Shown here: positions 21,136 through 63,687 of the stretch, one piece after another | Layout of the letters: every line of letters starts with the position of its first letter | How positions within the stretch are numbered: the stretch's first letter is position 1 | Assembly: GCA_038142205.1 (NCBI GenBank) | Contig: JAYQJO010000001.1 | Coordinates: 1,205,415 to 1,269,414, forward strand | From: Pseudomonadota bacterium | GTDB lineage: Bacteria; Pseudomonadota; Gammaproteobacteria; Eutrophobiales; Eutrophobiaceae | DNA length: 64,000 bases | Direction of reading: 5' to 3' | Position numbers and translations under genes: made by a program | The notes under the pieces: model-generated | What the model was told of the DNA's origin: nothing | Seen by the model: the letters and a program-made list of their open reading frames with translations, nothing else | Database searches by the model: none

Positions 21136-21216
21136 AATTAATAAACCTTATTATTTAATATTGTAATTATCTAAGATGAACCTTCTGCATGTTGAGAGTT
21201 TTTGATTATATCCCTA

Positions 21217-32100: not shown

Positions 32101-32141
32101 ATAACACCAAATAACACCAAAATAACACCAAATAACAACAG
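32101..32141. repeat. Tandem direct repeat, 3 perfect plus 1 degenerate copies of ATAACACCAA(A), upstream of the DUF1302 operon
   Basis: ataacaccaa ataacaccaa aataacaccaa ataacaacag, read directly. Confidence 0.7.
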
Positions 32142-42061: not shown

Positions 42062-42135
42062 TTCTCTATTTAGTCTATTGAGTCTTTCGAGTATATTACA
42101 TCGCTTTTATAACAAGCTATTTTAAATCGAAGACA

Positions 42136-43326
42136 ATGTCAGACATATCATTATCACAACGAACACAAAGCATAAAACCCTCCCCTACATTAGCAGTAAC
42201 CGCGCGTGCCGCTGAATTACGTGCTGAAGGGAAAGATATCATTGGCCTTGGTGCTGGAGAGCCAGATTTTGATACGCCGGAACATATAAAAGCAGCAGCA
42301 ATCGAATCACTAAATAAAGGTCAGACCAAATATACTGCGGTCGATGGTACCGTTGAATTAAAAAATGCCATTATTGATAAATTCAAACGTGAAAACAATC
42401 TTGAATATAACAGTAACCAAGTATTGGTTTCATGTGGCGCAAAACACAGTCTTTATAACTTGTTTCAAGCAATTTTAAATCCTGGCGATGAAATTATTAT
42501 TCCAGCACCATATTGGGTATCTTATCCTGATATGGCTAAGCTCGCTGGAGCAGAGCCGGTTATCATCAAAACCAACATTGATGATCATTTTAAAATCACA
42601 CCAAACAAATTACGTGGTGCAATTACTGATAAAACGAGACTGCTTGTTTTTAACAGCCCTTCTAATCCCACTGGTGTGAGTTACAATAAAGAAGAGTTAG
42701 TGGAACTAGGTAAGGTATTGGTTGAGTTTCCTGACGTACTTATTGTCACTGATGATATTTACGAACATATTCTATGGGGACAAGATAAGTTTATTAATAT
42801 TGTTAATGCCTGCCCTGAACTTTATGACCGAACAATTGTTGTTAATGGTGTCTCTAAAGCCTATTCGATGACAGGCTGGCGTATTGGTTATGTTGGCGGC
42901 CCAGAATCAATCGTTAAAGGCATGAAAAAAATTCAGTCTCAAAGCACATCAAATGCAAGTTCCATGGCTCAGGCTGCAGCTATAGCCGCTTTAAATGGCC
43001 CCCAAACCTATATTGAAGAAAGCACAGGTGTTTTTAAGGAAAGGCATGATTTTGTTTTAACATCGCTGCAACAAATTGACGGCATTAACTGTATACCTTC
43101 TGAAGGAACGTTCTATATCTTTCCTGATATGAATGGATTGATAGAAAGGCTCGATGGTATTTCTAACGATATTGAGTTGGCAGAGTTCTTTTTGGAAAAA
43201 GCAGAAGTGGCGATGGTTCCTGGGTCCGCATTTGGCGCGCCAGGCTGCATGAGAATTTCTTTTGCAACGAGTATGGAAAACCTTGAAAAGAGCATAGAAA
43301 GAATAAAGAAGTCATTGAATGCTTAA
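42136..43326 (+). CDS. Aspartate/aromatic aminotransferase (class I PLP-dependent aminotransferase)
   Basis: 396 aa with SKAYSMTGWRIGY lysine-PLP region and NPTG motif. Confidence 0.8.
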   Translation: MSDISLSQRTQSIKPSPTLAVTARAAELRAEGKDIIGLGAGEPDFDTPEHIKAAAIESLNKGQTKYTAVDGTVELKNAIIDKFKRENNLEYNSNQVLVSCGAKHSLYNLFQAILNPGDEIIIPAPYWVSYPDMAKLAGAEPVIIKTNIDDHFKITPNKLRGAITDKTRLLVFNSPSNPTGVSYNKEELVELGKVLVEFPDVLIVTDDIYEHILWGQDKFINIVNACPELYDRTIVVNGVSKAYSMTGWRIGYVGGPESIVKGMKKIQSQSTSNASSMAQAAAIAALNGPQTYIEESTGVFKERHDFVLTSLQQIDGINCIPSEGTFYIFPDMNGLIERLDGISNDIELAEFFLEKAEVAMVPGSAFGAPGCMRISFATSMENLEKSIERIKKSLNA

Positions 43327-43377: not shown

Positions 43378-43453
43378 TCCCCGGTAGCTCAGTCGGTAGA
43401 GCGGGTGACTGTTAATCACTAGGTCGGCAGTTCGAGCCTGTCCCGGGGAGCCA
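43378..43453 (+). tRNA. tRNA-Asn (anticodon GTT)
   Basis: Manually folded cloverleaf: acceptor TCCCCGG/CCGGGGA, D-arm GCTC-AGTCGGTA-GAGC, anticodon loop CTGTTAA, T-arm GGCAG-TTCGAGC-CTGTC, discriminator G, encoded CCA. Confidence 0.85.
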
Positions 43454-43490: not shown

Positions 43491-43788
43491 ATTTCGTTGA
43501 GAAATATATAACTATTAAGTTAGTTATCTCTCTGAATCCTATATAACCTGTATTACTATAATCTTTCTAAAACTCTTTTCTAAACCCATTTCGAAACTGT
43601 TAAATATAAAAACAGCATTTAGCCATGCAACAACAAGAGCAAAATATTAGTCTTGAAAAACGAGTAAAAAGTTTAGCTAATTATCTATAGAAATTTAATT
43701 TATTATTCTGTTTTATAACTCTCAAAGAATTTAACAAGCTCAACCATTGCCTCAGTATCAAATTTACAATACCGCTTTAATTGGCTTT

Positions 43789-45705: not shown

Positions 45706-46587
45706 CTACTTTACTGTTTCGAGATAAGTTTTAAACGCTTCTTTTATATCTGGATCTTTTAATGCATATTCAACTGAAGCCTGCATATAACCTAGTTTCG
45801 AACCACAGTCATATCTTTTTCCTTCAAATTCATAAGCAAAAACAGATTCTTTTTTTAATAATAAACTTATTGCATCGGTAAGCTGTATTTCATTACCCGC
45901 ACCCTTTGGTGTTTCTTCTAAGCAAGAAAATATTTCGGGACTCAACACATATCTTCCTACGACACCTAAAGTAGAGGGTGCTTTTTTCGGCTCAGGCTTT
46001 TCAACAATACTATTTATGTTAAATAACGACGCATCATCTGTTGATGATGTTTCAACAATGCCGTATTTAGAGGTATCTTCTTTGGGTACATTTTCAACAG
46101 CAATAACACTTTTTATTTGTTGTTGATATTTTTCAACCATCTGTTTGGTAACACCCCGCCCACCATCATCAATTAAATCATCAGGTAAAATGACAGCAAA
46201 TGGTGAATTACCTACAACAGGTTTTGCACATAAAACAGCATGACCCAGTCCTAATGGTTCAGCTTGACGTATGTATATACAAGTAACATTACCAGGAATT
46301 ATCTCTCTAACAATTTGAAGTTTTTCTGTTTTTCTTTTTTTCTCTAACTCTGTCTCAAGCTCATAAGCTTTATCAAAGTGATCTGTAATCGAGCGCTTTG
46401 TTCTACCTGTGATAAAGATGAGTTCTGTCATTCCTGCAGCAATCGCTTCTTCAGCAGCATACTGAATAAGGGGTTTATCAACTATAGGAAGCATTTCTTT
46501 TGGATTTGCTTTTGTAGCGGGCAAAAAACGGGTACCCATGCCTGCTACAGGGAAAACTGCTTTAGTTATTTTTTTCATACGTTTCAT
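45706..46587 (-). CDS. galU: UTP--glucose-1-phosphate uridylyltransferase
   Basis: 293 aa with [34 protein letters not shown] signature. Confidence 0.9.
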
Positions 46588-46690
46588 TTACTGACATGAA
46601 TCACGTTATCGCAATCTGTTTTTAATGATGGTATTAAAATACAAAGAGACTCTTTTAGTTTGTTATCGTCAACTTTATTAATAGAATCTA

Positions 46691-48429
46691 TTATTTCTTA
46701 ACTTTAGCTTCTATTTCTTTCAAATTAATTACAGGGTGTTTTGCGAGTAAAATTTTACTATGCGATGTTTGTTCTCGGCACTCATCATCGTAAAATAATT
46801 CTTCATACATTTTCTCGCCTGGACGCAAGCCGGAATATTCAATATTTATATCGCTATATGGAAGCAAGCCGGAAAGTTTAATCATTTGTTCAGCAAGATA
46901 ATTAATTTTTACCGGCATTCCCATATCTAAAACATAAATTTCACTACCGCTCCCCATAGCATTTGCTTGCAATATTAACTGGCATGCCTCAGGTATAGTC
47001 ATGAAATAACGTGTTATATCTTTATGAGTAACAGTTACAGGCCCACCTTTTCTTATTTGTTCTTTAAACAATGGTACAACACTACCTTCTGAGTCTAAAA
47101 CATTACCAAAACGTACTGTTATAAAATGCGTACTACTGCTTTCACTAATAATTTCCGTATATATTTCAGCTATACGCTTTGTGGCTCCTAAAATATTAGT
47201 TGGTTTAACTGCTTTATCAGTAGAAATTAAAACAAAACTTTCACAACTGTTTTCGTGAGCCGCTATAGCTATATTCTTTGTTCCTAATATATTATTTCTA
47301 ACAGCTTCACGAGGTTGTCTTTCTAGAATCGGAACATGCTTATATGCCGCCGCATGAAAAATAATATCTGGCTGATACTGTTTAATAGTTTTATCGACTA
47401 AAGTTTTATCGCACAAATCACCCAGTATAAATTCGCATTTTACATTTAATTGTGACAAAGACTGTTCAGTCCGATACAAGTTAAATTCATTTATTTCAAA
47501 TACTATTAATAAAGATGGTTCTAATGAAGCAATTTGTTTACATAGCTCAGAACCAATAGACCCCCTCCTCCAGTTACTAAAATCACTTTATTACTAGTAC
47601 TAGTTTGTATCTCCTGCCAATCTAATTCAACCTTTTCTCTGCCCAATAAATCCTCAATAGATACCTCACGAAGTTTAGAAAGAGCTTCTTGACTTCCAAC
47701 CATATCTTGAATACTTGGTAGTGTTCGAATTGGCAGACCCGTTCCCTCACATATATTCACTATTTTCTGCATTTGAATACTTGTTGCAGATGGAATCGCT
47801 ATTATTATTAGATTTATATCAAATTGCTGTATAAATTCTTGTACATGTTTAATCTCTCCATAAATTTTTATTCCATGAATTTGCGAACCTTTTAGTGAAA
47901 CATTATCATCTAATATAGCTATGGGCATATAACTACCTTCTCTTAAGCTTTCCCTAATTAGTAATTCTGCAGCTCGCCCAGCACCAATTATTAATACACG
48001 TTTATTATCTATCATTGAATTCATAGATAATCTGCGATCTTTCCATAGGCGATAACCTAATCTAGGAGCGCCAAGTAAAAATATTAGAAATACCGGATAT
48101 AAAATTAGTATAGATCTAGGAACACCATCCAATCGATTAATGTAAAATAAAAAGATAGCTATTATTATTGTCCCTACGAAAGAAGCGCGAAATATATTCC
48201 ATAGATCGGGCAAACTCGCAAAACGCCATAACCCGCGATAAAAACCAAATAATTTTGAAATACCGCCCTGAACAAGAATTATTAGCGGGATTGTCCATAG
48301 CATTGGGCTCCAAACATCGATTAACTGATAATCAAAGTTAAATCTTGCCATCCAGGCTAATAACCATGCGAACACGATCATTATTAAATCGTGAATAATT
48401 GCTAAGTGACGGTTATTTATACGGGGCAT
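46691..48429 (-). CDS. Membrane-anchored UDP-sugar 4,6-dehydratase / polysaccharide biosynthesis protein (WbpM/CapD/PglF family), frameshifted at C5 run 47561-47565
   Basis: ORF 47521..48429 gives the N-terminal TM region plus the start of a Rossmann motif (VILVTGGGG). One extra G restores GSIGSELCKQIASLEP... into ORF 46691..47479 (HAAAYKHVP etc.). Confidence 0.8.
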
Positions 48430-48489
48430 AACTTATTTAAAATATATATATTAATTAATCAAAAAACTATATCAAACTTTACCATACGG

Positions 48490-49704
48490 CTATTTTGAAC
48501 ATGCATGCAAAAATACTTTATGCACTGCTTTAGCCACATCCATTAAGTCGTTTTCAGTATTTCCAGGATGTATTAAAAAAGCAAGGCTGGATCTACCCAA
48601 TTTGTTAGCATTATGCAGAGATGAATAATCTTTTAGTTTTAAATTTTCAAATGCCGTTTCACGATATACTTCCGGACAACTACCAATAAAGCAAGGAACT
48701 CCTTCTGCGCATATTGCACCTAGAATTTTTAATTGATCCCAATTCGATTTTAAATAACTTGACTCTATAAAAGCATATAAACGGTAATAGCTATGCTTAA
48801 TATCTTCTGGTGGATTAGGTATAGTTAGAGCGGGGATATTTTGCAGTTCTGAAGTTAAAAGCTCAGCATTACGTCTACGTTGCACCAACCATTGTGGTAA
48901 TTTTTTTAGTTGAATACGTCCTATAGCAGCCTGCATTTCTGTCATTCTATAATTTGAACCAAAAGAATCATGCAGCCATCTAAACCCAATTTTTTCAGCT
49001 GGGCTATGGCACAAAGTATAGTTTTTTCCATGATCTTTATATGACCATGCCCGTTCAAATACTTCTTGATTGTTGGTTAGCAACATTCCACCTTCCCCGC
49101 CAGTAGACATAATCTTGTCTTGGCAAAAAGAGTATGCTGCTACATCTCCAAATGAGCCTACTACTCTATTCTTATAGGTCGCTCCATGAGCTTGTGCACA
49201 ATCTTCAACAATATATAAATTTTTCTGCTTGGCATATTCAGATATTGATGTCATGTCACAAGGCCACCCACCAAGATGTACAACGATTATTCCTTTTGTT
49301 CTTTCAGTTAATACTTCACTAATTGTCTCAACACTAATATTTTGTGAAACAGGTTCTATATCTGCAAAAACAGGTGTAGCACCGCATGCCACTACAGAAC
49401 TTGCAGATGCAAAAAATGTTCGACTTGGCACAATAACTTCATCACCCTTTCCAATTCCTAATGAACGAAGAGCTAACTCAAGCGCTACTGTTCCATTTGC
49501 AACGGCAACAGCATATTCAACGCCTACATGACTTGCATATTCTTTTTCAAATGTTTTGCATTCTGTACCTGTCCAATAATTAACTTTTCCACTGCGTAAT
49601 ACATTCATCGCAGCGTCGACTTCATCTTTTTCGTAGACAGGCCAAGGTGGGTTTTGATTGACCCTTATTTTTTCACCACCATCAATTGCTAATAAATTAC
49701 TCAT
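48490..49704 (-). CDS. DegT/DnrJ/EryC1/StrS-family PLP-dependent sugar aminotransferase
   Basis: 404 aa; DegT-family sugar aminotransferase signature (the PLP-binding Lys region is not pinned to a specific residue). Confidence 0.75.
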   Translation of the reverse strand: MSNLLAIDGGEKIRVNQNPPWPVYEKDEVDAAMNVLRSGKVNYWTGTECKTFEKEYASHVGVEYAVAVANGTVALELALRSLGIGKGDEVIVPSRTFFASASSVVACGATPVFADIEPVSQNISVETISEVLTERTKGIIVVHLGGWPCDMTSISEYAKQKNLYIVEDCAQAHGATYKNRVVGSFGDVAAYSFCQDKIMSTGGEGGMLLTNNQEVFERAWSYKDHGKNYTLCHSPAEKIGFRWLHDSFGSNYRMTEMQAAIGRIQLKKLPQWLVQRRRNAELLTSELQNIPALTIPNPPEDIKHSYYRLYAFIESSYLKSNWDQLKILGAICAEGVPCFIGSCPEVYRETAFENLKLKDYSSLHNANKLGRSSLAFLIHPGNTENDLMDVAKAVHKVFLHACSK

Positions 49705-50350
49705 TATTTTTTACTACACGAGCAGGTGAACCAACAACAATTTTACCAGATGGAACATCATTAATCACGGTAGAGTTAGCGCCAACTACTGAACCCTCTC
49801 CGACTCTCACCCCTGATAAAATAACAGAGCCTGCACCTATAAATACGTTTTTTTCTACAACAACTCCGCCACACAGTGTAGAACTTGGCGCGACATGTAC
49901 ACCACTATGAATTTCACAATCATGCTCGATTACTGCATTAGAATTTATAATCACGTTTTTATTAATTTTAACGTCAGGATTAATTACAGCTGAAGGCATT
50001 ATCATTGAACCACATTCAATATCTACATCACTACTAACATATGCACTTGGGTGCACAACTGTAGTCAATTTAAAATCATTTTTAACAAGCCACTCTGCAA
50101 CTTTCAACCTTACTTGATTATTTCCTATTGCTACAATACCAGCATCCACATTATTACGCTGAGCAATCAACTCTTCTCTCCCACCAATACACTTATAGTT
50201 GAGAACCTTAGTGTTCCTTGTGTTTTCATTATCATCAATTAAAAATGTTAACTCAAACTCGTCAATACTACGTACAGAATCTGCAACGATTTTTGCATGA
50301 CCACCAGCCCCATAAATAAATATCGATAACTTATTCATCTGCTGACTCAT
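49697..50350 (-). CDS. Sugar N-acetyltransferase (left-handed beta-helix hexapeptide repeat; PglD/NeuD family)
   Basis: Rossmann-like N-terminus IFIYGAGGHAK followed by hexapeptide repeats. The start was chosen at an internal Met to avoid overlapping the upstream gene; the track ORF extends to 50380. Confidence 0.65.
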   Translation of the reverse strand: MSQQMNKLSIFIYGAGGHAKIVADSVRSIDEFELTFLIDDNENTRNTKVLNYKCIGGREELIAQRNNVDAGIVAIGNNQVRLKVAEWLVKNDFKLTTVVHPSAYVSSDVDIECGSMIMPSAVINPDVKINKNVIINSNAVIEHDCEIHSGVHVAPSSTLCGGVVVEKNVFIGAGSVILSGVRVGEGSVVGANSTVINDVPSGKIVVGSPARVVKNNE

Positions 50351-50922
50351 TCCCTTTGAATTTTGGCATAGTATTATCACTTGAATTATTCACACCGCTT
50401 CCTTTTACCACATTTAAAACAGTCAATATTAAAATTTTAACATCAAATAAAAGGTTATGATTATTAACATAATACACATCCAATCTTAATCGTTCGCCCC
50501 AAGATGTATCATTTCTTCCATTAACCTGAGCCCAACCCGTTATCCCGGGCTTAACATCATGTCGACGACTTTGTTCTTTATTATATAACTCTAAATACTC
50601 AATCAATAATGGTCTCGGGCCTACAATACTCATTTCTCCTTTGATCACATTATAGAGCTGAGGAAATTCATCAATACTAAATTTACGTATAAATTGACCT
50701 AGTGGAGTCATTCTTTCCATATCAGGTAGTAGCTCACCATTGGCATCTCTGAGATCTTTCATAGTTCTAAACTTATATAATTTAAAAGGCTTTGCATGCT
50801 TCCCTGGTCTTTTTGAACAAACAAGATTGGAGAGCCGAGAGACACTAAGATTAATAAAGCAGCAACAACCAAAACAGGAAAGAGAAGTATCAATAGTGAT
50901 ACAGATAAAACCAGATCAAATA
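50331..50922 (-). CDS. Undecaprenyl-phosphate sugar phosphotransferase (PglC/WbaP C-terminal domain family; initiating transferase), frameshifted at T5 run 50810-50814
   Basis: The track ORF holds the catalytic domain (PRPLLIEYLELYNKEQ, VKPGITGWAQV). The upstream frame encodes the PglC-type N-terminus VKRIFDLVLSVSLLILLFPVLVVAALLILVSLGSPILFVQK from a GTG start. Confidence 0.75.
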
Positions 50923-50928
50923 TTCTTT

Positions 50929-52047
50929 TCACAGCTTCATTACTTTTATTATTTCATTATTAATCAGTCTGACATCAAACTTACTTTCTACAATTTCACG
51001 GCTAACCTTACCCATAGTTGAAGCTAAATTATTTGATGAAATGAAGTTTTCCATTGCAATAACTAACTCATCAACATTTTTGACTGTTATCAAAAACCCG
51101 TTCTTTTTATCAATAACTGTTTCACGGCAGCCCGGAACATCTGTTGTAATAATAGCTCGTCCCATTGACATTGCTTCCAAAACTGATCTTGGCATTCCTT
51201 CACGATAAGAGGGCAATACAACTACAGATGCATCTCTTACATAGGGCCTTACATCATCCGTCTCTCCTAAATAATCAATCATATTTTTATCCTTTAATTT
51301 TTTCAAATCATCAAAAGATATTGCAGACGGGTTATCATCGAGAGGCCCTAGAACCTTAAACTCAATCTTAGGGTACTTTTTTTTTCAATCTTCTTGCTGC
51401 TTCTATATACTCCATTATTCCCTTATCTTTTAATAGCCTGGCGACCATCAAAAACACTAGATCTCGTTGTGGTAATGGCTGAATCTGAAAAAAGTCTGTA
51501 TCAACACCAGAGCCATTAGTGATCGAGTAGCTCGACTCTTTCTTAATAATTTTATTACTAATAAAAACATCCCTATCATCTTTATTTTGAAAAAAACATT
51601 CGTATTATTTTTCAATGCCAGCTTATACATTCTTGGCACTATTAGTTTTACTACTTTTTGTCTAAATGTTCTTGCTTTAAGAAAAGTACTACCTAAGCCT
51701 GTTATTAATGCATATTGACGCTTCACTCTACAAATTTTTGCTGCAATCAATCCATATACAACTGGTTTAATTGTATAACCGACAACAATATCTGGCTTAA
51801 TTTTTAAAATTAATTTAATAAACCAAATAATTAAGACTAAATCCTTAAATGGATTAATCCCCGTCCGCTCTAATGGTAATGAGTAGTAATGACTTCCCCT
51901 ATTATTAAACCACTCACTTACCTGCCTATCTTTCCCACCTGCGCATGCGAACACATCATGCTTTCGATTCAATAATTCATCTATCAGATTACCTCTAAAA
52001 TTGATGAGTGAACGAGGCCAACTTCCAATAATTAATATTCTTGACAC
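50929..52047 (-). CDS. Glycosyltransferase family 1/4 (GT-B fold), carrying two homopolymer frameshifts (T9 at 51377-51385; A7 at 51590-51596)
   Basis: ORF 51457..52047 is the N-domain. A third frame gives GSGVDTDFFQIQPLPQRDLVFLMVARLLKDKGIMEYIEAARRLKKK. ORF 50929..51306 holds the EGMPRSVLEAMSMGRAIITTDVPG C-domain motif. Confidence 0.7.
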
Positions 52048-52137
52048 AGTTAATTAATTTTAATTTTCATATTCAATAGAACACTTGAATATGTGCTTTT
52101 AAACAATGAATAGTTTACTAAAATTGTACTTATTACA

Positions 52138-52865
52138 TTAAGTTGGTCTGCATACTAATATGAATGACTGAGCAAATTTTTCTGGTATTTTTAAAAACCT
52201 GCATATTTTTTCAATGGGGATTATTAGCTTTGATGCTAATAAACCTAGCCATGGACCTGTCCTAGGATAAAAACTATAAAACATTACTTTTTCTATTTTA
52301 AAACCAGATTCTTTCAACTCAGTTTCAATGCAGCTTAAACTCATCGTGTTTGCTATATTTTTATTCTTTATTTTGTTTCTAATTCTATAAACCATGCCAA
52401 GCGGACTATCAGAATTAACATGTACATTAATCACCAAATACCCATTTTTGTTGATCATATTATACATTTCATTCAAAACATCGAGCCTTAACTGTTTTTG
52501 AGCATTTAAGAAAAACGAAATGCAGTTATTACATCAAATTTTTCATTCAAACTATTTGAAGTAATGTCTTGCTTTAGAAGCTTAGAATTGACGCAGTTAG
52601 CCTTCGAGATCTCAAGCATACTATCAGAAACATCAACTCCACACGTATCATCAAAATAACTTTCAGCTAATTTTATAATTCGACCAGTACCACAAGCAAA
52701 ATCTAAATATTTCACTTTATTTTCGCTTGAAATTTTTTCAAAGATATTTTCTAAAAGAGGCTTTTCTAATAAAGACCACTGTGAACCATAAAATCCTACC
52801 TTATAAGTTTCTGAGTAGAATTTTCCATACCCATCACTAGAGTGGCTTTCTCGATAATCTTGCAT
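52138..52865 (-). CDS. Class I SAM-dependent methyltransferase, frameshifted at A5 run 52511-52515
   Basis: N-terminal ORF has motif I LDFACGTGR. One added base joins ...AFRFFLNAQKQLRLDVLNEMYNMINKNGYLVI to the C-terminal ORF. Confidence 0.7.
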
Positions 52866-52902
52866 ATAACTAACCTGATAAAATTTAAATAGACTTCAGT
52901 TA

Positions 52903-54033
52903 TTAAGTAGAAAACAAACTTCTGTATGTTTGGTCATATGATTCTAGACATTTACTCCAGCCAAAATTTTCTTCAACTCTAATACGACTATTATTAGCCA
53001 TCTTCTCCCTAAGTTGCTTATCATTGCCCAAACGAACAATTGCATTACATATTTGTTCTGGGTTTTTAGAGTCCACCAGAATCCCATTAAAGTCATTAAT
53101 AACAGCTTCTGGATTACCACCTACTTTAGTTGCTATAACTGGGAGGCAATTACTCATCATTTCAAGAATACTGTTGGAAAAACCTTCTTCATGTGAACAT
53201 AACAACCCGATATCAGCTGCTTCTAAATACTCAGTCACATTGTTTTGTGGACCAAACCAACGAACATTATTTATTAAATTAAGTTCCCTTGTTTTTTCTC
53301 TAAGCATCAAGCCATAGCCATCATCTCTTCCCACACATAATACTTCCCAATTCTGTTTAATTTTACCCTTTAATTTGACCAGCGCATTTAACAAGTCCAT
53401 ATGCCCTTTGTATGTCATTAAGTTTGCTACCACTACTATTACCAAGCTATCTTGACTGATTTTAAGTTCATCTCTTTGCCTTATTTTAACTTCACTTGTA
53501 ACTCTATCTCTCAGAGTTACACCGTTATATATAAGACCTAACTTATGCTCAGGAACATTCTCTTTCTTTAATTGTTCTAGCACACAATTTGAATTACCTA
53601 ACATAAAATCAATTTTATTGTGCAACCAATATTCTAGTTTTTTTAGCAATTTATATTTACTTTGATAATTGTTAAGACATCTTCTGCTCATCACTCGTTT
53701 ACTACCAGGGAAAAATAAAGAACATAGTCCCCCTACTAAATAAGCTTCAGGCAAGAAATAATGTGTCACATCCGGTTTTATTTTATGAATATAAAAGAAT
53801 AATTTTGAAAAGTTTGTAAGTAAATTAAGAGCTTTATTGGTTTTAATAGTACCAGTTAACATCGTCACATCAGCAGTTAAATATTTACTTTTCTGAACCT
53901 CATTTCCTTTCATAACATACAGATAAACATCATATTTTGACTTATCAAGCATATTTGATAGATGTATCAAATGATTTTCAGTGCCACCTATTCCCAGTTG
54001 ATTGATCACGAATAATATTTTTATTTTTTGCAT
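52903..54033 (-). CDS. Glycosyltransferase family 4 (GT1 superfamily)
   Basis: 376 aa; C-terminal EGFSNSILEMMSNCLPVIATKVGGNPE motif. Confidence 0.75.
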   Translation of the reverse strand: MQKIKILFVINQLGIGGTENHLIHLSNMLDKSKYDVYLYVMKGNEVQKSKYLTADVTMLTGTIKTNKALNLLTNFSKLFFYIHKIKPDVTHYFLPEAYLVGGLCSLFFPGSKRVMSRRCLNNYQSKYKLLKKLEYWLHNKIDFMLGNSNCVLEQLKKENVPEHKLGLIYNGVTLRDRVTSEVKIRQRDELKISQDSLVIVVVANLMTYKGHMDLLNALVKLKGKIKQNWEVLCVGRDDGYGLMLREKTRELNLINNVRWFGPQNNVTEYLEAADIGLLCSHEEGFSNSILEMMSNCLPVIATKVGGNPEAVINDFNGILVDSKNPEQICNAIVRLGNDKQLREKMANNSRIRVEENFGWSKCLESYDQTYRSLFST

Positions 54034-54051
54034 TTGATCTATTCTCTGCTA

Positions 54052-54885
54052 CTAATCAACAGTATTATGCTTAAACTTATTGAATAACATATTAATTGCT
54101 GCTTTTTGTTTAAGGCTCTCACCATACTGTTTATTAAAATAACAATATGCAGTCGCATATGAAAACTTGTCAGCCCAACTCATGTCCACATCACATTCTG
54201 ACTTATCTCTATAACCTTTTAAAAATGCTTCTTTTAATGCAGGAAGCTTATTCCATTTCATATGAAAATAGTTCCATACTGGTACTAACCCATTCAAACA
54301 AGAAATCATATTTCCAATATCGATATATATTGGACCTAAATTACTTGTCCTAAATGTTGTGAAGTTATTAGGAGAGGCATCATATATTACGATATTATTC
54401 TCTCCGTTTATATTATTTACACTAATATTCGAAAAACCAAAATCACAATGCATGTATGTCATAGGCAATCTTCTTGTATAACTATCAATGTCATTAACCC
54501 CGCATTTCCTCATTGCTTTGATAAACGGCTCAGAAGGGAACCAGTAATTTCTTTCATTAAGCATCATACTATTGTGCAATGTTGCTAATACGCCTCCTAC
54601 TCTCTCAAATAATGAAACAGCATCTCTTTCTTTAATAAGATCTTTCATGAAAGCAATATATTCTTCTCTTATAGATTTTTCTGATTTTATATTCTCAAAC
54701 TTTACGGTATTTCCATTCTTTTCGAGTGGCTCAGGAAATATAAACGCGAGCTTTTTAGACAAATCAAATATATGCCTCGATTTTATGTACTCCTTATCAG
54801 AGTCAACATCATATTTTTTTATAACCTCATTATCTTTTAGAAATACATTCTTACTTTTATTTAAATATATATTCTTATCTTCCAT
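54052..54885 (-). CDS. Protein-kinase-like fold phosphotransferase (APH/choline-kinase/LPS-kinase-like) embedded in the polysaccharide cluster
   Basis: 277 aa with Brenner catalytic motif HCDFGFSN (HxDxxxxN) and downstream IDIGN (DxG-like metal-binding) motif. Confidence 0.5.
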   Translation of the reverse strand: MEDKNIYLNKSKNVFLKDNEVIKKYDVDSDKEYIKSRHIFDLSKKLAFIFPEPLEKNGNTVKFENIKSEKSIREEYIAFMKDLIKERDAVSLFERVGGVLATLHNSMMLNERNYWFPSEPFIKAMRKCGVNDIDSYTRRLPMTYMHCDFGFSNISVNNINGENNIVIYDASPNNFTTFRTSNLGPIYIDIGNMISCLNGLVPVWNYFHMKWNKLPALKEAFLKGYRDKSECDVDMSWADKFSYATAYCYFNKQYGESLKQKAAINMLFNKFKHNTVD

Positions 54886-55003
54886 ATTTTATACTCTATA
54901 CATCATTTTATTTTCCAATAGACATTTTCTAATTAATAAGAAAAAACATGCAGACTGAATCAATGCAACCACCAACTCAATAATTACTGCACCTACAATT
55001 CCA

Positions 55004-56166
55004 TTATCTGGAACCACCATAAAACAGCCGATAGAAAGCAACAGCAAAGAGAAAAAAACTTACAATCAATTGTGCTTTAAATTGCCTAATCGCGGTTAAC
55101 ACATATACCATGTATAAAACCATATTATTTGCAGCAGCAGCAAACATTATTAATAAAAGCTTGTCTGAATGGCCTGACAATTTGTCTCCATAGATTACTG
55201 AAATAATAAAATCGCCAAAAAAATAGATGAAAAACATTCCTAGCGTACCAATTACCATGCCTGTTATTGCAAGCCTATATAACAACCCCATAAATTCTTT
55301 ACTGTTTTTTTTCATGATAACACTTTGATAATTTAGATAAATAAGGTGTTCCAAATGAAGCTGCAATAAGTGAAGAAGCTACAGAAAAATATACAAGTGC
55401 AGCATAAATACCCAATGTACTTGTGCCATTATAAAAAGCTATAAAATATTTTGAAATATTTGGTAATAAAGAAGAAAAGAAAGCAACTCCACACAGGGGT
55501 AATGCTAAAAAGAAAATTTCTTTTATACTCTCAAGACGACCTTTGAAAAAAAAAATTCAGTACCGAAGGAGATGATAACTCTGTTTTTAATAATACTGCA
55601 TTCAAATCATATAATAATAATATAATCACATGACTAACAATCAACCCCAACGCAATATGAATTAAATTCCCACCTTTATAGATAATTAAAATTGAAATGA
55701 TTACTGAAACAATTGATTTCAATATTAACGATAACCCAACATTGAATAAATCATCGTTCTTTTGAAAAAAACCATAAATAATATCACTTAATGATTCAAA
55801 ACACTTTGCGCCCGCGATTATCAGCAAAACCCAACGCATATGAGCATTATCAATAAAAACAAATGAATAACTTATAATTATAAACAGGGCTGTCAAAGAA
55901 GTGATAAATCGCAAACTATAATAATCCGTGTTGGCATGCTCTGCTTTAGCATCAGATGTTATCACAAGCCTCAAACGCATATTTGTTAACATAAATACAG
56001 GGGCAGAAATAGCAAAAGCTAGTGCGTATATACCTACTGAATCTAAACCTAATACATTTGTAATTAATATTACTATTAACCATGAACTTGCCGCATAGCC
56101 AATATTACCAGCTGTATACCAAAGTGAATTTTTTAGTATTGAATTACTTAATAAACTTCTTAACAT
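55004..56166 (-). CDS. wzx: Wzx-type O-antigen/polysaccharide flippase (MOP/PST family), with at least two frameshifts in A10 (55546-55555) and T8 (55305-55312) runs
   Basis: Hydrophobic N-terminal ORF 55531..56166 and C-terminal ORF 55004..55366. A third frame across 55367..55530 gives membrane-protein-like sequence (LALPLCGVAFFSSLLPNISKYFIAFYNGTSTLGIYAALVYF...). Confidence 0.6.
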
Positions 56167-56218
56167 AAATATTAATACAACTATATTTTAATGCCGCATT
56201 TTCATATAGAAAAAATAT

Positions 56219-58170
56219 TTAACTTATCCACTTTTCATACCAAGATTGAAACATAATAACATTCCATAATTGATGATGACAATTTCTTACGCCAGACTGA
56301 TGATCTTCCCATGCTTTCTTTATTACATTGCTGTCTAACACTCCTTGTTCTTTAATTTTTTCATAATCTAATAAATCCATTGCCCATTTTTTTAAAGGCC
56401 CTCTCAACCATTTATCTAATGGAATACCAAAGCCCATTTTGGGTCGATTTACCAACTCTTCAGGGACATGCTTATACAATACCTGTCTCAATAAATACTT
56501 GCCTTGATTATTTTGTATTTTATATTTGATTGGAATCTGCCAAGCAAAATCAATCAAGTTGTGATTTAAATAGGGAACCCTACTTTCTAAACTAACAGCC
56601 ATCGAAGCTCTGTCTACTTTAACAAGTACGTCATCGGATAAATATTTAACAGTATCGTTATATAACATTTTTTTGGTTGCTGTTAAATTCTTCATGACTT
56701 CATCTTCTACACGGTTATTAACAGTATTATGATTAATCACAATTTTAGAATTAAACCACGTTGAAGTAAGCGATCTATAGAGTTCATCATCACTTTCCAT
56801 ATTTAGTACGCGACCAATTTTATGAATTTTTTCGCCGGCTAATCGCAATTGATAATTTACTGGAATATATTTTGATAAAGTCTTATAAATTGTATCCCAC
56901 TTTTCTGGTGAAACACCTAACAGTATATTCCCAAGAAACATACGTATGCTAGAAGGTAGTTTATTAGCTCTTTCACTAATATTATAGCTATATACATGTC
57001 GGTTGTAGCCGCAAAATAATTCATCAGCCCCATCACCAGATAACGCTACTTTAACTTTTGTTTTAGCTAATTTTGAAACCAAATAAGTAGGGATTTGCGA
57101 AGAATCTGCAAAAGGTTCATCATATATATCGGCTAATAAAGGAATGGTTGCCATTGCGTCGGCAGATGACACTATCATTTCTGTATGATCTGTCTTTAGG
57201 TGCTCAGCTACAGCACGTGCTTGTATCGACTCATCATATCCAACTTCAGAAAAACCCATAGAAAATGTTTTAATAGGGTTTACTGATTGTTTTTGCATCA
57301 AAGCTACAACCAACGATGAATCAATACCTCCAGATAAAAATGCACCTATCGGAACATCAGAAACCATACATGATTTAACTGCACTTTTAAGCCGTATTTC
57401 CAATTCATTAACAAGTTCATTTTCATTGAGGCCAGTGATAGGATTTTGTTCTCCATGTTCAACTACATCTTTAAGGGACCAATATGATTTAACATCAGGT
57501 AGCTTACCTACTGAATTTAAATTAACCTTGCAAAATGAGCCAGACTCTAATTTACGGAAACCTTTGAAAATACAGAATGGAGAAGGGACATAAGAATATT
57601 GAAAAAATCCTGATAGCGATTCAATGTCTAACTCTGGCTTGAAGTCAGGCCAAGCTTTGAAAGCTTTGAGCTCAGATGCAAACATAAAAACACCTTTATA
57701 CCAGCCATAGTACAATGGCTTCTCACCAAGCCTATCCCTACATAAATATAACGTTTTATTTTTTTATCCCATACAGCTATCGCAAACATTCCTATTGTTT
57801 TTTTTATAGTTTTTTCAATCCCCCATTTTGATACACTTTCAATCAATACCTTGGTATCTGAATGGCCATCAAATTCAACACCCTCTGCTGATAATTGCTT
57901 ACGCAGCTCTAAAAAGTTATAGATTTCTCCGTTAAACACCATTACATAGCGACCACATGTTGAGTGAATTGGTTGTCCGCCAGTTTCACTAAGGTCAATA
58001 ATAGAAAGCCTTCTGTGCCCCATTGCAATACTATTATTTTCTCCGCACCATATCCCTATTGCATCTGGTCCACGGTGAGTTAAAGATTTAGCTGATTCTC
58101 TAACAATAGAGTCGACGGGCCGTTCTGGCATTGAGTTTGGGTGGATTAAAAAGCCCGTTAGACCGCACAT
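56219..58170 (-). CDS. Asparagine synthase (glutamine-hydrolysing)-family amidotransferase (AsnB/WbpS-like), frameshifted at T7 run 57759-57765
   Basis: ORF 57628..58170 has the N-terminal Cys2 GATase domain (MCGLTGF...). ORF 56219..57715 has the synthetase PP-loop SGGIDSS. The junction ...FAIAVWDKK/NKTLYLCRDRLGEKPLYYGW is restored by one added base. Confidence 0.8.
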
Positions 58171-58248
58171 GATAATTTTTTTTTCATAGGAATTGATTCT
58201 TAAAAATAACTTTCAGCAGTAGAAAAATATAAATTTCTAGTATTTATA

Positions 58249-59613
58249 TTACTTAGATGATGTAGTACTTATTCTTGAAGCTGCATATAGTAGAATTATC
58301 ACAAACCAAAATAAGGGATGCCTTAAGGTTAGATGTGCCGAAGAGAATATTAATAAAGCAGTTAAAGCAAAAAGACCGTGAAAGTCTTTTTTTAACAAAG
58401 TTAAATAAGCTACCCTACCAGCGAACAGAAAAAATATTAATACGCCAACGATGCCAGCATTGGTTAATAAGTCCAAGTATGTGTTATGAGATTCCATACC
58501 CATAAATGGAGCTTCTATACCTGAGTAGGCACCAGGGCCAAATCCGAATACAGGTGAGTATTTCCACGCTTCAATACTATTTTCATATAAATACAATCGT
58601 GCATTTATCTTCCCTTCCTCACCCCCAGTGACTTTCTTAGTCATACTATCCTTCTTATTCTTATTCTTATTCTTATTCTTATTCTTATTCTTATTCTTAT
58701 CGTCAGCATAAATTCCATCATTTTTAACATCAATTTTTTTAATTATTCCTGATGCGACTTTCGAATACAAAATTCCAGACATATACATTGAGCTATTACC
58801 TGGCCTCTTAAAAATATCATCAGCGAGCATATAAAACATCACGCCTGTTATCAAAACTAGCAAGGGGTAAAGCCAAAAGTAGTTTGTTTTTTTTCTACAT
58901 GATAGATAGGCAATAAACATGATTAAATAAAATACTGCTATTATTTCTACAGCACTACTTAATGCATCCGATCTTATATGCCATCCCATCCAAAATATTA
59001 AGGTTATAAAAATAGCGAATATGATTTTATTTTCCTTAGTTATTTGCCTTATTGCTAAAAATGGCAACAGACAAAATAAAAGGGCTAACTGATTTGGGTT
59101 TTTCGACCAAGCGCTGAAACGTGTAGCATTATGATAAGAAGTTAATCGCAAATTCTGGTACCAGTCAGTACTCAAACTAAAATGCTTTATTGATATCTCA
59201 ATAGAATACGCAACTAATAGTAATGACACAGAAATATATATTAGATATTTTACTATTCTTTCCGCGCTTTCTGAAAAAAAACAAATCCTCGTATAAATTA
59301 ATAAACTTACAAATGCTGCATAACAATAACCGATCGTGCTGTGTAAGACAATTGAGCCTTTAGGTAAATTCAAATACTGGCTCATAAAAACGCCCAACAA
59401 TATTGATGTTAATAATGCCGACCAAAAGTATAAAATCGGCTTTATTTTAACCATCAATTCTTTATAGCCTGCTTTTTGCAGCACTTGATAAAATATGCTG
59501 AAACTTAAAAGTATCATTAATACTTCACTAAGCCCGACAGGAAGATCAAAAAATCTTAAATTAGTTGCAGCAGATAAGAATAGAGCAAGAGCAAAAATAA
59601 AATCAATCATCAT
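58249..59613 (-). CDS. wzy: O-antigen polymerase/ligase-family membrane protein (Wzy_C domain) with an internal (Lys-Asn)8 low-complexity loop
   Basis: 454 aa polytopic protein with Wzy_C-type motif ESHNTYLDLLTNAGIVG in a large loop. The KNKNKNKNKNKNKNKK stretch is encoded by the hexanucleotide repeat at 58654..58701. Confidence 0.65.
   Translation of the reverse strand: MMIDFIFALALFLSAATNLRFFDLPVGLSEVLMILLSFSIFYQVLQKAGYKELMVKIKPILYFWSALLTSILLGVFMSQYLNLPKGSIVLHSTIGYCYAAFVSLLIYTRICFFSESAERIVKYLIYISVSLLLVAYSIEISIKHFSLSTDWYQNLRLTSYHNATRFSAWSKNPNQLALLFCLLPFLAIRQITKENKIIFAIFITLIFWMGWHIRSDALSSAVEIIAVFYLIMFIAYLSCRKKTNYFWLYPLLVLITGVMFYMLADDIFKRPGNSSMYMSGILYSKVASGIIKKIDVKNDGIYADDKNKNKNKNKNKNKNKKDSMTKKVTGGEEGKINARLYLYENSIEAWKYSPVFGFGPGAYSGIEAPFMGMESHNTYLDLLTNAGIVGVLIFFLFAGRVAYLTLLKKDFHGLFALTALLIFSSAHLTLRHPLFWFVIILLYAASRISTTSSK
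58654..58701. repeat. Hexanucleotide tandem repeat (CTTATT)7 plus one imperfect unit inside the wzy coding region
   Basis: Read directly; in-frame and encodes (NK)n. Confidence 0.9.
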
Positions 59614-59708
59614 TGTTATGATTTATTAGTCATATTCTAATGAATATCTATAAATAATTTTTATTGTGTTTTTATATAAGTCTATCAACATATTTTATGT
59701 CATTAAAA

Positions 59709-60596
59709 TCATACAAGATACTTAACTTCTGAACCTTCGCCGATTTCTTCTTGCAAAATTAATTTTTCATTTTCTTTTTTCCACAAACTTCCTTGCTCAA
59801 CTTCGATTCCTTTTGATAGCACATTTCGAGATATTGCGACCACTCCTCCTTCTTTTAAATACATTCTTATATTTTCAATCCCTAATCTAATTTGATCATC
59901 TGAAAAATATTGTTTATTTAGAAGGTTACTAACTCTTATCACATCAAATTTATGATGTAGCTTTACATTATATTTGAAACAATCCTGTTCTATTAAAGAA
60001 ATACTTTTGTTGTTACAAACCAGTGGATTAAGTAAAGATATTGTATGTGACTCAACGAAGGAACTACGGAATTTACTTAATTTTAAATAAATACTGGAAA
60101 AAAAATTAGAAAATATGCACCACTTGTGTTCTGAATCAGGCAGCCTTAATCCCAAGCGCCAAACTCTTAAAAGTACAGGACCCCCTGTAGTTGCGCGATA
60201 TTCTTTAAGAAAATATTTTTTATAAACCTTTAATTCTAGAAATTTATCCATGATTGTTACGCTTATTTTTTTTTCCATAAATTCTGTTTGCAGGAACTCC
60301 TGAAGCTCTAGCGTTGTTATTCCATCAGATGCGCCTAAATCCAATATAGTTATAGAATCATAATTGTGTTTTTTTAAGTTACGTAATAAAAGTTTAGATA
60401 CTCCTACTAATCTTCCTGAATTTGTTCTTTTCCATGTATTTTCAATTCGCACGTCGTCTAAGATTTTACTAAATTTTTTAGTCAGCTCAGGAGTCCAATC
60501 TCCTGATTGATACTTTCTCAAACATTCAAAATCAGCATGAAAAACATACCTCCAAATCCTCTGATCAGGGATTGCTCCTTTAGAAATTATTTTCAT
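59709..60596 (-). CDS. Putative SAM-dependent methyltransferase-like protein (FkbM-like?)
   Basis: 295 aa; the only recognisable element is a glycine-rich motif-I-like segment ILDLGASDGITT. Confidence 0.35.
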   Translation of the reverse strand: MKIISKGAIPDQRIWRYVFHADFECLRKYQSGDWTPELTKKFSKILDDVRIENTWKRTNSGRLVGVSKLLLRNLKKHNYDSITILDLGASDGITTLELQEFLQTEFMEKKISVTIMDKFLELKVYKKYFLKEYRATTGGPVLLRVWRLGLRLPDSEHKWCIFSNFFSSIYLKLSKFRSSFVESHTISLLNPLVCNNKSISLIEQDCFKYNVKLHHKFDVIRVSNLLNKQYFSDDQIRLGIENIRMYLKEGGVVAISRNVLSKGIEVEQGSLWKKENEKLILQEEIGEGSEVKYLV

Positions 60597-60608
60597 GAAT
60601 AAAAATGA

Positions 60609-61781
60609 TTAGATATTGTTTAATGTCATTTGTGTTGCATTAATCATTTTTCTTTTGGAATACTTACCTATAATATAATTTCTAATCTCTGATGAATCAT
60701 AATTTCCGGACTTATAATCAGAGACAACTGATGACCATGCACTGGCTAACTCACTTGGGGAACCAATAGGCACAACCTTTCCAAATATAGAAATAATTTC
60801 TTTGACATCACTAACATCTGTCGAAACGCAAGGGTTCCCACAAGACATACCTTCTATAATAACATTTGGGAATCCTTCTGATTTTGAGGTTAGAGTAAGA
60901 ACATCGATCGCATTATAGATTTCAACCATGTTTTCTTGTTTACCTAACCAAGTCACGTTATTTTCTAATCCTAATGACATTGATAAGCTTTGTAATTTTT
61001 CAAGTTCTTTATCCGCCCCTTCTCCAACACATATCAATTTAATATTATTATCATGCTGACAATAAATTGAAGCTGCTTTTAAAAATACGTCATGTGCCTT
61101 TAATGGGTGAATTCTTGCAACCAAGCCAATGATTATCACTTCATCAGCAACACCTATTTTTTTGCGCCAAGACTTGCCCTGTTCTGGCTCATATTTATAT
61201 TCGTCTGTGTCTACGCCATTATTAATAACTGTCCAGTTTTTGCATTTGAACCCTTTATCAATATGAAACTGCATAACTTTATTAGAATTAGCAATAACAT
61301 TTTCAATCATACCAGAGACATATTTACAAAATAAAAATGGAATTTTTACTTTTAAACTGCCGCCAATCCCAGTAGATCTCACACCCCATACTAACTTACA
61401 GTTACTTAAACTTAAGCTTACTAATAATGCAATAAAATTTGTTAACTCTAGCATGCTATAAAGAATAACTGATTCATTCTTTTTAAGTAATTTTCTAAAT
61501 TTAAAAAACCAAAAAACTGGAAATAAAAAATCTAGATACTTTAAAGAACATCTATTCAATAAAGGTATAACATCAATTTCACTATTAACTTCTTTACTTA
61601 GAATCAAAGGATCGCTCTTCAACAAAGTAATGATGGTTACTTTAAATTCTTTCTTGCTTAACCCATTAGCTAATTCTATTAGTTGTCGCTCAGTACCCGC
61701 ATACTCGATACTGCCAATAAAAAATACTAAATTTTTCAGCTCTAAACCTTTCTCTAGTTCTAAATTACATCCAGCGTTCAT
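60609..61781 (-). CDS. Glycosyltransferase family 4
   Basis: 390 aa; C-terminal EGFPNVIIEGMSCGNPCVSTDV motif. Confidence 0.75.
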   Translation of the reverse strand: MNAGCNLELEKGLELKNLVFFIGSIEYAGTERQLIELANGLSKKEFKVTIITLLKSDPLILSKEVNSEIDVIPLLNRCSLKYLDFLFPVFWFFKFRKLLKKNESVILYSMLELTNFIALLVSLSLSNCKLVWGVRSTGIGGSLKVKIPFLFCKYVSGMIENVIANSNKVMQFHIDKGFKCKNWTVINNGVDTDEYKYEPEQGKSWRKKIGVADEVIIIGLVARIHPLKAHDVFLKAASIYCQHDNNIKLICVGEGADKELEKLQSLSMSLGLENNVTWLGKQENMVEIYNAIDVLTLTSKSEGFPNVIIEGMSCGNPCVSTDVSDVKEIISIFGKVVPIGSPSELASAWSSVVSDYKSGNYDSSEIRNYIIGKYSKRKMINATQMTLNNI

Positions 61782-63687
61782 GCCATGCCTGAAAAACGAG
61801 AATATCCCATAAATAATATTGCCAATTCTTTTTGCCAGATAAATGCTCTTGCCATTTTTTACTTATCAATTTTGAATTTAAATATCCTTCTTGTCGAATT
61901 CTATTTTCATTTAACAGACTATCTGCCCACTCTCTTAAAGGACCTCGTAACCAATTATCAAGAGGAACTCCAAAACCCATCTTTGGCCGTTCAAATAATT
62001 CTTGGGGCACGTACTTCTGCAACACTTGCCTCATCAACCATTTACTTTTTCCATTTCTAATCTTGAATTTCAATGGTAATTGCCACGAAAACTCTACTAC
62101 CCTATGGTCAATTAATGGTACTCGTGCTTCTAAAGAATTAGCCATACTGGCTCTATCAATTTTAGTAAGAATATCATCTGGTAAATATGTGTGATAATCT
62201 AAATACTCCATTCTTTCTATATATTCAGGAAGAAAACCTTGTATTGCCTCATCCCAAATAGCCCCTTTCTTTTCTTCACTGTTTAATACCAACTCATTAG
62301 GATTTTTCCAATGACTTAACAGGTATCGATAAAGCTCATCATCATTCTGCAGGAGTATGTCAGGGATTTTTCTAATTTTTTCGCCGAATTTAGAATCAGT
62401 TAAGCATGTTGGCATGGCATTTGAAAAAGCTCTTAAACGACCAGATTTTATGGAATTAATCATTAAAGATAATCCGTTTAAAAATGAATCAGGAAGTCTT
62501 TTTCTACTACGTTGTATTCGTTCAGCTAAAAAGTACCTATCATATCCAGCAAAACACTCATCACCACCGTCTCCAGATAATGCAACAGTGACATGTTGTC
62601 GTGCTAACTCAGAAACTAAAAATGTAGGGATCTGTGACGAATCAGAAAATGGTTCATCGTAAATATCCGGTAATTTTGGAATAACATTAAGCGCATCATC
62701 AGACGATACATATAATTCTGAATGATTTGTTTTTAAATGTTTTGCAATTATCGCTGCATGTTCTGCCTCATTATAGTTACTCTCTTCAAAACCTATGGTG
62801 AATGTGTTTATTGGACTTGATGATTGTGCTTGCATAAGAGCGACAACTAATGACGAATCAATGCCTCCAGAAAGAAAAGCACCCAATGGAACATCTGATA
62901 TCATTCTTCGTCCGACAGCATCTAACAATAATTCATTTAGTTTATTTGTAGCTTCAAAATCATTGAAATCAATTCTATTATAACTAGCTCGTTGAACAAT
63001 ATTAGATAACGACCAGTATGAATTTATTTTTGGTTCTTCTCCTAACCTGACTTTAAGAATACAACCTGCTTCAAGTTTAAATACGTTTTGATAAATAGAC
63101 ATAGGTGCTGGCACATAATTATGTCTCATAAAGCTGGCGAGAGCATCACGGTTTATACACGGACTCCATCCTTTATGTGCTCTTAATGCTTTTAGTTCTG
63201 AACCAAATAGGAAAAGACCATTAAAATTCCCATAGTACAATGGTTTTATTCCCATCCTATCTCTTACTAATGATAGTAAATTTAATTTACTATCCCATAC
63301 AGCAAAAGCAAACATTCCAATTAGTTTAGATACTGTATTTTCAACTCCCCACGTAGCGATAGCTTCAAGAAGTGTTTCTGTATCGGAATCACCTCGAAAA
63401 TTAATACCTAGTGATATTAATTCCTTCCTGATCTCAATGTGATTATAAATTTCACCATTATAAACCAAAACCCAACGGCCATTGTTTGACATCATTGGCT
63501 GCCGTCCAGACTTTGAAAGATCTATGACAGCTAGCCGAGTATGTCCAAGAGTAATCCCTTTATTCTTATCTACCCAAACACCTTGATCATCAGGCCCCCT
63601 CTTTCTAAGGATCTCAGTCATTGCAGAACAATCCGACTGCAATGATTCAATCGAATTATTAGTAAGTATTCCAGTAAGACCACACAT
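61765..63687 (-). CDS. Asparagine synthase (glutamine-hydrolysing)-family amidotransferase, second intact paralogue
   Basis: 640 aa: MCGLTGIL... GATase domain, SGGIDSS PP-loop, colinear with the 56219..58170 gene. Confidence 0.85.
   Translation of the reverse strand: MCGLTGILTNNSIESLQSDCSAMTEILRKRGPDDQGVWVDKNKGITLGHTRLAVIDLSKSGRQPMMSNNGRWVLVYNGEIYNHIEIRKELISLGINFRGDSDTETLLEAIATWGVENTVSKLIGMFAFAVWDSKLNLLSLVRDRMGIKPLYYGNFNGLFLFGSELKALRAHKGWSPCINRDALASFMRHNYVPAPMSIYQNVFKLEAGCILKVRLGEEPKINSYWSLSNIVQRASYNRIDFNDFEATNKLNELLLDAVGRRMISDVPLGAFLSGGIDSSLVVALMQAQSSSPINTFTIGFEESNYNEAEHAAIIAKHLKTNHSELYVSSDDALNVIPKLPDIYDEPFSDSSQIPTFLVSELARQHVTVALSGDGGDECFAGYDRYFLAERIQRSRKRLPDSFLNGLSLMINSIKSGRLRAFSNAMPTCLTDSKFGEKIRKIPDILLQNDDELYRYLLSHWKNPNELVLNSEEKKGAIWDEAIQGFLPEYIERMEYLDYHTYLPDDILTKIDRASMANSLEARVPLIDHRVVEFSWQLPLKFKIRNGKSKWLMRQVLQKYVPQELFERPKMGFGVPLDNWLRGPLREWADSLLNENRIRQEGYLNSKLISKKWQEHLSGKKNWQYYLWDILVFQAWHERWM

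Follow-up and report, generated by a model that had tools for sequence, protein, structure and literature searches.

The classical SSR contingency loci in LPS and LOS genes, e.g. those of Haemophilus and Neisseria, are tetranucleotide or homopolymer tracts. Insertions of low complexity that are rich in asparagine and lysine are known in proteins of A+T-rich genomes, and both in-frame coding VNTRs and low-complexity loop insertions are already well known. The polymerase Wzy joins Und-PP-linked repeat units, the modal length being set together with a Wzz partner. The gene for the ligase WaaL lies with the core-LPS (waa) genes, and the enzyme acts a single time on each molecule.

The VNTR loci of E. 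coli O157 change by whole units at rates of 4.4e-5 to 1.8e-3 per generation, and alleles of up to 13 units show low and roughly constant rates (PMC3777172). In the catch-and-release model for P. aeruginosa Wzy the charge carried by its two large periplasmic loops plays a central part, and residues in the loops of S. flexneri Wzy were reported to affect the modal length (PMC12004945). Mutations of large periplasmic loops in other Wzy proteins change both polymerisation and modal length (PMC12004945; PMC3854497). The residues R288, H338 and R215 are important for the function of WaaL, as described for its large periplasmic loop (PMC3643930, citing Perez et al. 2008). Protein O-oligosaccharyltransferases are marked by PglL_A (PF15864) or PglL_B flanking Wzy_C (PMC3643930).

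Here we describe a hexanucleotide repeat inside a putative wzy gene of a gammaproteobacterium. It is located in a stretch of 64,000 nt with a G+C content of 37%, which was analyzed as a whole and is referred to as the window. Our literature search found no published in-frame coding VNTR in a Wzy polymerase.

Sequence and extent of the repeat tract

The window contained a perfect period-6 array from 58652 to 58700 on the minus strand with the sequence AT(AAGAAT)7AAGAA, i.e. 49 nt and 8.2 copies with 100% matches and 0 indels. Its TRF score of 98 was the highest in the window. By exact regular expression (TTCTTA)8 was found at 58652-58699 and (CTTATT)7 at 58654-58695. An earlier note on this DNA had placed the array at 58654-58701; the site was right, but the exact span differs and base 58701 falls outside the perfect tract. 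When the window was simulated 100 times with a dinucleotide-Markov model, the longest perfect period-6 tract per simulation had a mean length of 14.3 nt and a maximum of 17 nt. A perfect-tract scan of the whole window revealed no tract of any other period longer than 24 nt.

The tract is contained in frame in the ORF 58249..59613 on the minus strand, which encodes 454 aa. The coding strand reads GAC G[AT (AAG AAT)x7 AAG AA]G GAT, with the tract in brackets, and the encoded peptide is D304 D305 (K-N)7 K320 K321 D322. The Lys-Asn codons are located at 58657..58698 and correspond to residues 306-319. Eight Lys-Asn pairs had been proposed previously, but the translation gives (KN)7 followed by KK. 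With several perfect copies of a unit divisible by three and a length beyond chance the tract is an in-frame coding microsatellite. The description as a perfect tandem hexamer array inside the polymerase gene was thus confirmed by the TRF result and the simulations.

Since the unit comprises six bases and is in frame, a slippage event would lengthen or shorten the protein by one Lys-Asn pair without ever inactivating the gene, as the earlier note had correctly argued. Classical phase variation involves a unit not divisible by three or a promoter site, whereas here a 6-bp unit lies in frame within an ORF. No promoter-like or terminator-like sites were found in a site scan of the tract, and the ORF list of the window contained no plus-strand ORF covering it. 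A regulatory role of the tract was therefore rejected.

Two other repeats were noticed in the window. The tandem 10-bp unit AAATAACACC is present in 3.8 copies (or 21 bp x 1.9) at 32098-32137, in the intergenic region between ORFs ending at 31994 and 32360. A trivial second in-frame repeat, (AAT)5 at 21059-21073, is located inside a membrane ORF of 142 aa on the minus strand (20707-21135), where it appears to encode a leucine run (SLLLLF).

Family and putative function of the host gene

The ORF carrying the tract (58249..59613, minus strand) is intact in the window and encodes a polytopic membrane protein of the Wzy_C family with 12 predicted TM helices. The Pfam family Wzy_C (PF04932) matched residues 224-395 with 39.6 bits at a gathering cutoff of 31.7, and all homologues found were PF04932 carriers or close relatives of carriers. 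NCBIfam, including its ligase families, gave no match to the 454-aa ORF. The sole sequence match in the PDB was a weak one (29 bits) to the oligosaccharyltransferase 9rmk_A.

An AlphaFold2 model based on 24 homologues was confident overall (pLDDT 84.8, pTM 0.84), and the predicted fold is of the WaaL/SEDS type. When compared to the cryo-EM structures of WaaL (7TPG/7TPJ), sequence identity was 12-13%. The RX10G and RX15G spacings were looked for as well. Two arginines, R165 and R339, are invariant, one in each of the two large loops; R339 and G357 form an RX17G spacing and no glycine follows R165.

Based on the gene context we assign the protein putatively as the O-unit polymerase Wzy and not as a WaaL ligase, because the neighbours of its gene are wzx and other O-unit genes and not core-LPS genes. 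The identity as WaaL O-antigen ligase was rejected, since no heptosyl- or core glycosyltransferase genes are located nearby and no NCBIfam ligase family matched. Likewise, a PglL-type protein O-oligosaccharyltransferase was rejected as the PglL_A motif was not detected: at E up to 1 neither PglL_A (PF15864) nor PglL_B was present, and besides Wzy_C only two unrelated families appeared below their thresholds. Among the subset of window ORFs scanned no Wzz-like gene was identified.

The TM9-TM10 loop

The AlphaFold2 model and a hydropathy scan agreed on 12 helices. The short loops rich in lysine and arginine alternate in such a way that both termini are predicted to be cytoplasmic and the loop between TM9 and TM10 (residues 269-377, 109 residues) to face outward. 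This loop is most likely periplasmic, judged from the alternation, the model and homology. Of the two possibilities named in the earlier note, a large periplasmic loop is thus favoured over a cytoplasmic linker.

The loop can be separated into two parts. Its first part, residues 269-337 (58603..58809, minus strand), is variable and rich in indels according to the family alignment and the model. The KN tract (residues 306-319) is located here, about 20 residues upstream of R339. All residues of the 60-residue segment that holds the tract (271-330) had pLDDT values below 50 in the otherwise confident model, so this half of the loop is probably disordered. The second part (58483..58599, minus strand) is conserved and carries R339...G357xGxGA...E374-x-H376-N377, with R339 and H376 being invariant in 24 sequences. 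In a profile alignment with hhalign (E 0.0019, probability only 14%) these two residues pair with R288 and H338 of E. coli WaaL, a pairing which is supportive rather than decisive.

The tract changes the net charge of the loop from +2 to +9, corresponding to +1 per KN unit, and the pI from 8.8 to 9.7. The loop of the closest relative, which is free of the repeat, also has a net charge of +9. The equivalent loop of a more distant relative (P0002, see below) has a net charge of -3.

The surrounding polysaccharide cluster

The gene belongs to an O-antigen-type polysaccharide gene cluster (45706..63687, minus strand). The cluster starts with an AsnB-like gene followed by a GT4 glycosyltransferase, a hypothetical gene, wzy, a second AsnB-like gene, wzx, a hypothetical gene, GT4, a methyltransferase and another GT4. 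It continues with a small Bac_transf initiating transferase, a PglD-like acetyltransferase, a DegT aminotransferase, a PglF/WbpM-like dehydratase and galU. Thereafter follow tRNA-Asn, aspC and uvrB, a flank which we take to resemble that of the P. aeruginosa O-antigen locus. The presence of Polysacc_synt (wzx), three GT4 genes, Bac_transf and PglD-, DegT- and PglF-like genes identifies the cluster as belonging to the Wzx/Wzy type. The same gene order was found in a JGI metagenome contig (L001) with 76% nucleotide identity.

The two AsnB-like glutamine amidotransferase genes (56219-58170 and 61765-63687) flank the wzy block and are paralogues with 49% protein identity, as determined via L001. 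Their presence points to a repeat unit containing amidated uronic acid or acetamidino sugars.

Compared to the window, the synonymous divergence of L001 (window 48490-61781, L001 7860-21155) was 0.3-0.5 for GT390, hyp295 and wzy and 1-3 for hyp277, GT376 and DegT. This uneven divergence suggests a mosaic cluster which may have been shaped by recombination. In a contig of a relative (L096; ENA ERZ23498511 scaffold_12, 13572-21191) the uvrB-galU flank was 93% identical to the window (45706-53000). Here galU, PglF, DegT, PglD and Bac_transf were kept, with DegT only ~70% identical, and different glycosyltransferases followed. We hence regard the locus as a serotype-variable hotspot with the KN-bearing wzy specific to one variant.

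At the edge of the O-antigen locus a small indel was observed: about 122 nt at 43495-43616, just downstream of tRNA-Asn (43378-43453), were present in the window but missing in L097 and L098, two contigs with 99% identity to it. Proteins exactly matching UvrB and AspC (window 40040-43326) were also present in the metagenome assemblies SRR11524960, ERZ27264259, DRR796587 and SRR18653131. Among species-representative genomes the best matches to UvrB reached 75% identity and came from assorted Gammaproteobacteria.

Frameshifts within the window

Several genes of the cluster were frameshifted when compared to L001, namely an AsnB-like gene, wzx (three times), the methyltransferase, a GT, the initiating transferase and the PglF-like gene. 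The wzx-like flippase gene (Polysacc_synt; 54910..56166, minus strand) consisted of four reading-frame pieces broken at T10, A8 and T7 runs, while its homologue in L001 was intact with 417 aa. Further gene-breaking sites were 55058-55578 (wzx), 51376/51597, 50814 and about 47500. The gene ppsA, located elsewhere in the window, was split as well (23513-23520).

Contigs of the same organism assembled from short reads (L083, L087, L089, L097 and L098) were used for comparison. At 57758 the window carried A7 and the short-read contig A8. This run splits the AsnB-like amidotransferase gene directly downstream of wzy (56219..58170, minus strand), which was intact with 650 aa in L089. The corresponding pairs were T5 and T6 at 52514, T6 and T7 at 43800 and G4 and G5 at 36897. 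One nucleotide was deleted from the window at 46697 and at 39719, both sites being intact in the short-read contigs. Every gene-breaking site that could be checked was thus a 1-nt deletion in the window with the gene intact in the other assembly, and most but not all of these deletions were located in homopolymer runs (A/T or G).

Most simply, the frameshifts are consensus errors of the long-read assembly. Since the genes that could be checked are intact in the short-read contigs, the cluster should not be read as decaying; a pseudogenised cluster was rejected on these grounds, and the apparent decay probably arose as an artefact in sequencing the window. The gene wzy probably belongs to a functional pathway. 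The copy number of a hexamer is less error-prone than the length of a homopolymer.

Some further differences were recorded in the same regions. The DUF2779-family gene has 494 aa in L083, L096, L097 and L098 and 465 aa in the window, with the deletion at 43800 lying within the gene; in the region of this gene, position 44237 belongs to a TAG in the window and to an AAG in L083. The longest homopolymer of the window, A13 at 28370-28382, is located between the minus-strand ORFs 27998-28339 and 28482-29906, and its true length is uncertain because of the indel errors elsewhere in the window.

The tract in an independent sample and the search for other alleles

By exact look-ups of neighbouring proteins, Logan contigs of the same organism with 99.9-100% identity were found in SRR15322231, SRR15322237, SRR15322238, SRR15322241 and SRR15322242. 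As a de Bruijn assembly with k=31 must break in a period-6 tract of 49 nt, the look-up for the tract itself was started inside it, using the C-terminal 143 residues, a query that begins 30 nt within the tract. One contig matched, SRR15322242_46442 (L089). Its first 30 nt are exactly tract sequence, and beyond the tract it corresponds to window positions 58681..56124, being identical with the exception of one homopolymer base. As this contig carries the end of the tract together with the identical flank, the tract is not an artefact of the window assembly. A break at k=31 needs a repeated 31-mer, from which we infer a tract of at least 37 nt in SRR15322242, i.e. at least (KN)5.

A second full-length allele was found neither with the 454-aa and 453-aa products as exact queries nor by protein and profile homologue searches. 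The same result was obtained with a DNA pattern of flanks plus variable gap in metagenome_contigs, with profile-based locus searches of genome_contigs, metagenome_contigs and viral_contigs and with tblastn against plasmids. Because the tract breaks short-read assemblies at k=31, a full-length copy of this wzy is systematically missing from such data.

Relatives and selection

The closest relative (P0001, 78% identical) does not carry the repeat; the equivalent stretch is NSVVNNIEIKQRKVQVDVNKKT. In P0002 (43% identical) the stretch is different again and likewise without the repeat. Within the variable loop segment neither sequence could be aligned with the window protein. The family alignment comprised 168 members obtained from word-index searches and an exhaustive profile search, the latter yielding 834 matches at E below 1e-30 from 1.84 billion representatives. 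Tandem di-, tri- or tetrapeptide repeats were present in none of the 168 relatives. The segment from TM9 to the conserved arginine measured 70 aa in the window protein, the longest among the 168 (median 24), and 61 aa in P0001 and 65 aa in P0002.

For the comparison of wzy with its homologue in L001 the whole-gene dN/dS was 0.20, and dN amounted to 0.32 in the variable segment and 0.08 in the rest of the gene. Hence the gene is under purifying selection while the segment is relaxed. Taken together, the lack of the repeat in relatives, the variable length of the segment and the raised dN indicate that the tract is a lineage-specific expansion in what the alignment suggests to be the most insertion-tolerant part of the protein.

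Possible origin and role of the tract

Within the loop the tract occupies the portion with the lowest conservation, which is rich in indels and of low model confidence, and the closest homologue lacks the repeat; this argues for tolerance rather than function. In our opinion the tract is rather probably an in-frame coding microsatellite that arose by slippage, in a part of the large Wzy loop that is disordered and tolerates insertions. An AAG-AAT seed would have been expanded in this lineage by replication slippage to 8.2 perfect copies within the poorly conserved first half of the TM9-TM10 loop. Each slippage event would add or remove one Lys-Asn pair with the gene staying active. Since the catalytic Arg/His segment about 20 residues further on would be left untouched, the insertion would be tolerated, with little or no effect on polymerase function. 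The locus would then behave like an ordinary in-frame VNTR, for which length polymorphism is assumed and rates may be as low as those of short 6-bp VNTR alleles. Mutability and near-neutrality of the tract are what we infer from these data; selection for the tract would explain the purity of its eight copies equally well, and the loop charge of +9 common to the window protein and P0001 (n = 2) hints that the lysines may be doing something.

Alternatively, the tract may be a fixed functional insertion, i.e. a lysine-rich stretch kept by selection near its present length and not serving as a variable element, for instance as charge compensation for nearby acidic substitutions (DGIYADD...KKD). 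We regard this as unlikely. The two loops reach the same +9 despite their different sequences, the whole gene is under purifying selection with a dN/dS of 0.20 and an independent sample carries the tract too, at an estimated length of 37 nt or more. However, the charge argument consists of two sequences, the model confidence of the region is low and selection on the peptide would not require the same codons in each unit. As all units are identical in their nucleotides, recent slippage rather than an old maintained sequence is indicated. Along the lines of the earlier note, the tract may also be a length-variable polycationic extension of the Wzy capture loop: slippage would alter its reach and charge, and these would tune the binding of acidic or pyrophosphate-linked O-units and with it the polymerisation efficiency or modal length. 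The presumably periplasmic loop adjoins the conserved Arg/His segment, the tract lifts its charge from +2 to +9, by +1 per unit, the loop of P0001 has +9 too and the array is as perfect as would be expected of an actively slipping locus. Moreover, loop charge and residues matter in the Wzy proteins of P. aeruginosa and S. flexneri (PMC12004945). We nevertheless consider such a tunable arm distinctly unlikely, given that no copy-number variant was found in the protein, genome and metagenome collections searched and that the tract sits where the loop is least conserved and the model confidence low. Furthermore, the loop of P0002 has a charge of -3, so that charge is not conserved in the subfamily, and eight 6-bp copies fall in the low-rate VNTR range. 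No other SSR-bearing gene was seen in the 64 kb, which therefore does not look like part of an SSR-rich contingency genome.

An in-frame rheostat, in which slippage yields sub-populations that differ in polymerisation efficiency or modal chain length of the O-antigen while the gene is never switched off, appears very improbable to us, and the designation of the tract as a contingency locus is conjecture. The idea that phages or antibodies recognise the loop itself fails as a direct effect: Wzy is an inner-membrane enzyme, so recognition could be altered only via the O-antigen product. That the tract is an assembly error, or an expansion in an already non-functional cluster, is hardly credible. 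The many frameshifts of the cluster relative to L001 would fit such a view, but L089 carries the last 30 nt of the tract with the identical flank, the frameshifts that could be checked are absent from the short-read contigs and wzy is intact with a dN/dS of 0.20.

Should the tract be only a tolerated slippage product, the reading we prefer, it would provide a strain-typing marker for this marine-type gammaproteobacterium. It would also indicate that the large Wzy loop takes up arbitrary insertions in its first half, a point of use in engineering and modelling Wzy. If, on the other hand, the copy number tunes loop charge and polymerase, this would be a new graded way to vary LPS chain length and would supply a natural series of alleles on which the catch-and-release model could be tested. 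A true rheostat would represent a contingency mechanism of a graded kind that is undescribed in O-antigen polymerases.

Comparison with known systems

With the SSR contingency loci of LPS and LOS genes the tract shares the simple repeat in a surface-glycan gene. In contrast to these, the unit is a multiple of three so that no ON/OFF switching results, and the genome window is not rich in SSRs. The insertions in proteins of A+T-rich genomes are similar in that the same AAT/AAG-type codons are expanded by slippage into tolerant surface loops. Here, however, a single isolated case was found in 64 kb, and it is a strictly periodic dipeptide and not a ragged run.

When compared to WaaL (7TPG/7TPJ; E. 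coli K-12 R215/R288/H338) the loop has a far longer variable part, and the gene is located in an O-unit cluster beside wzx. The loops PL3 and PL5 of Wzy from P. aeruginosa and S. flexneri are a further counterpart (PMC12004945, PMC2932511, PMC3854497): these are polytopic inner-membrane polymerases with large periplasmic loops that carry essential arginines and in which charge is relevant. The cationic loop described here (pI 9.7) fits this picture. It differs by the lack of a literal RX10G/RX15G spacing and by a Lys-Asn tract of low complexity that is not conserved.

The repeat itself resembles the in-frame 6-bp coding VNTRs used for MLVA, e.g. those of E. coli O157:H7 (PMC3777172). In both cases perfect hexamers are arranged head to tail within an ORF with the frame kept, and gain or loss of whole units by slipped-strand mispairing is to be expected. 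For the O157:H7 loci measured rates and allele series exist, while the present locus is represented by one known allele. Unlike those loci, it is hosted by a putative polysaccharide polymerase, and its unit encodes a charged dipeptide in a loop near the catalytic segment.
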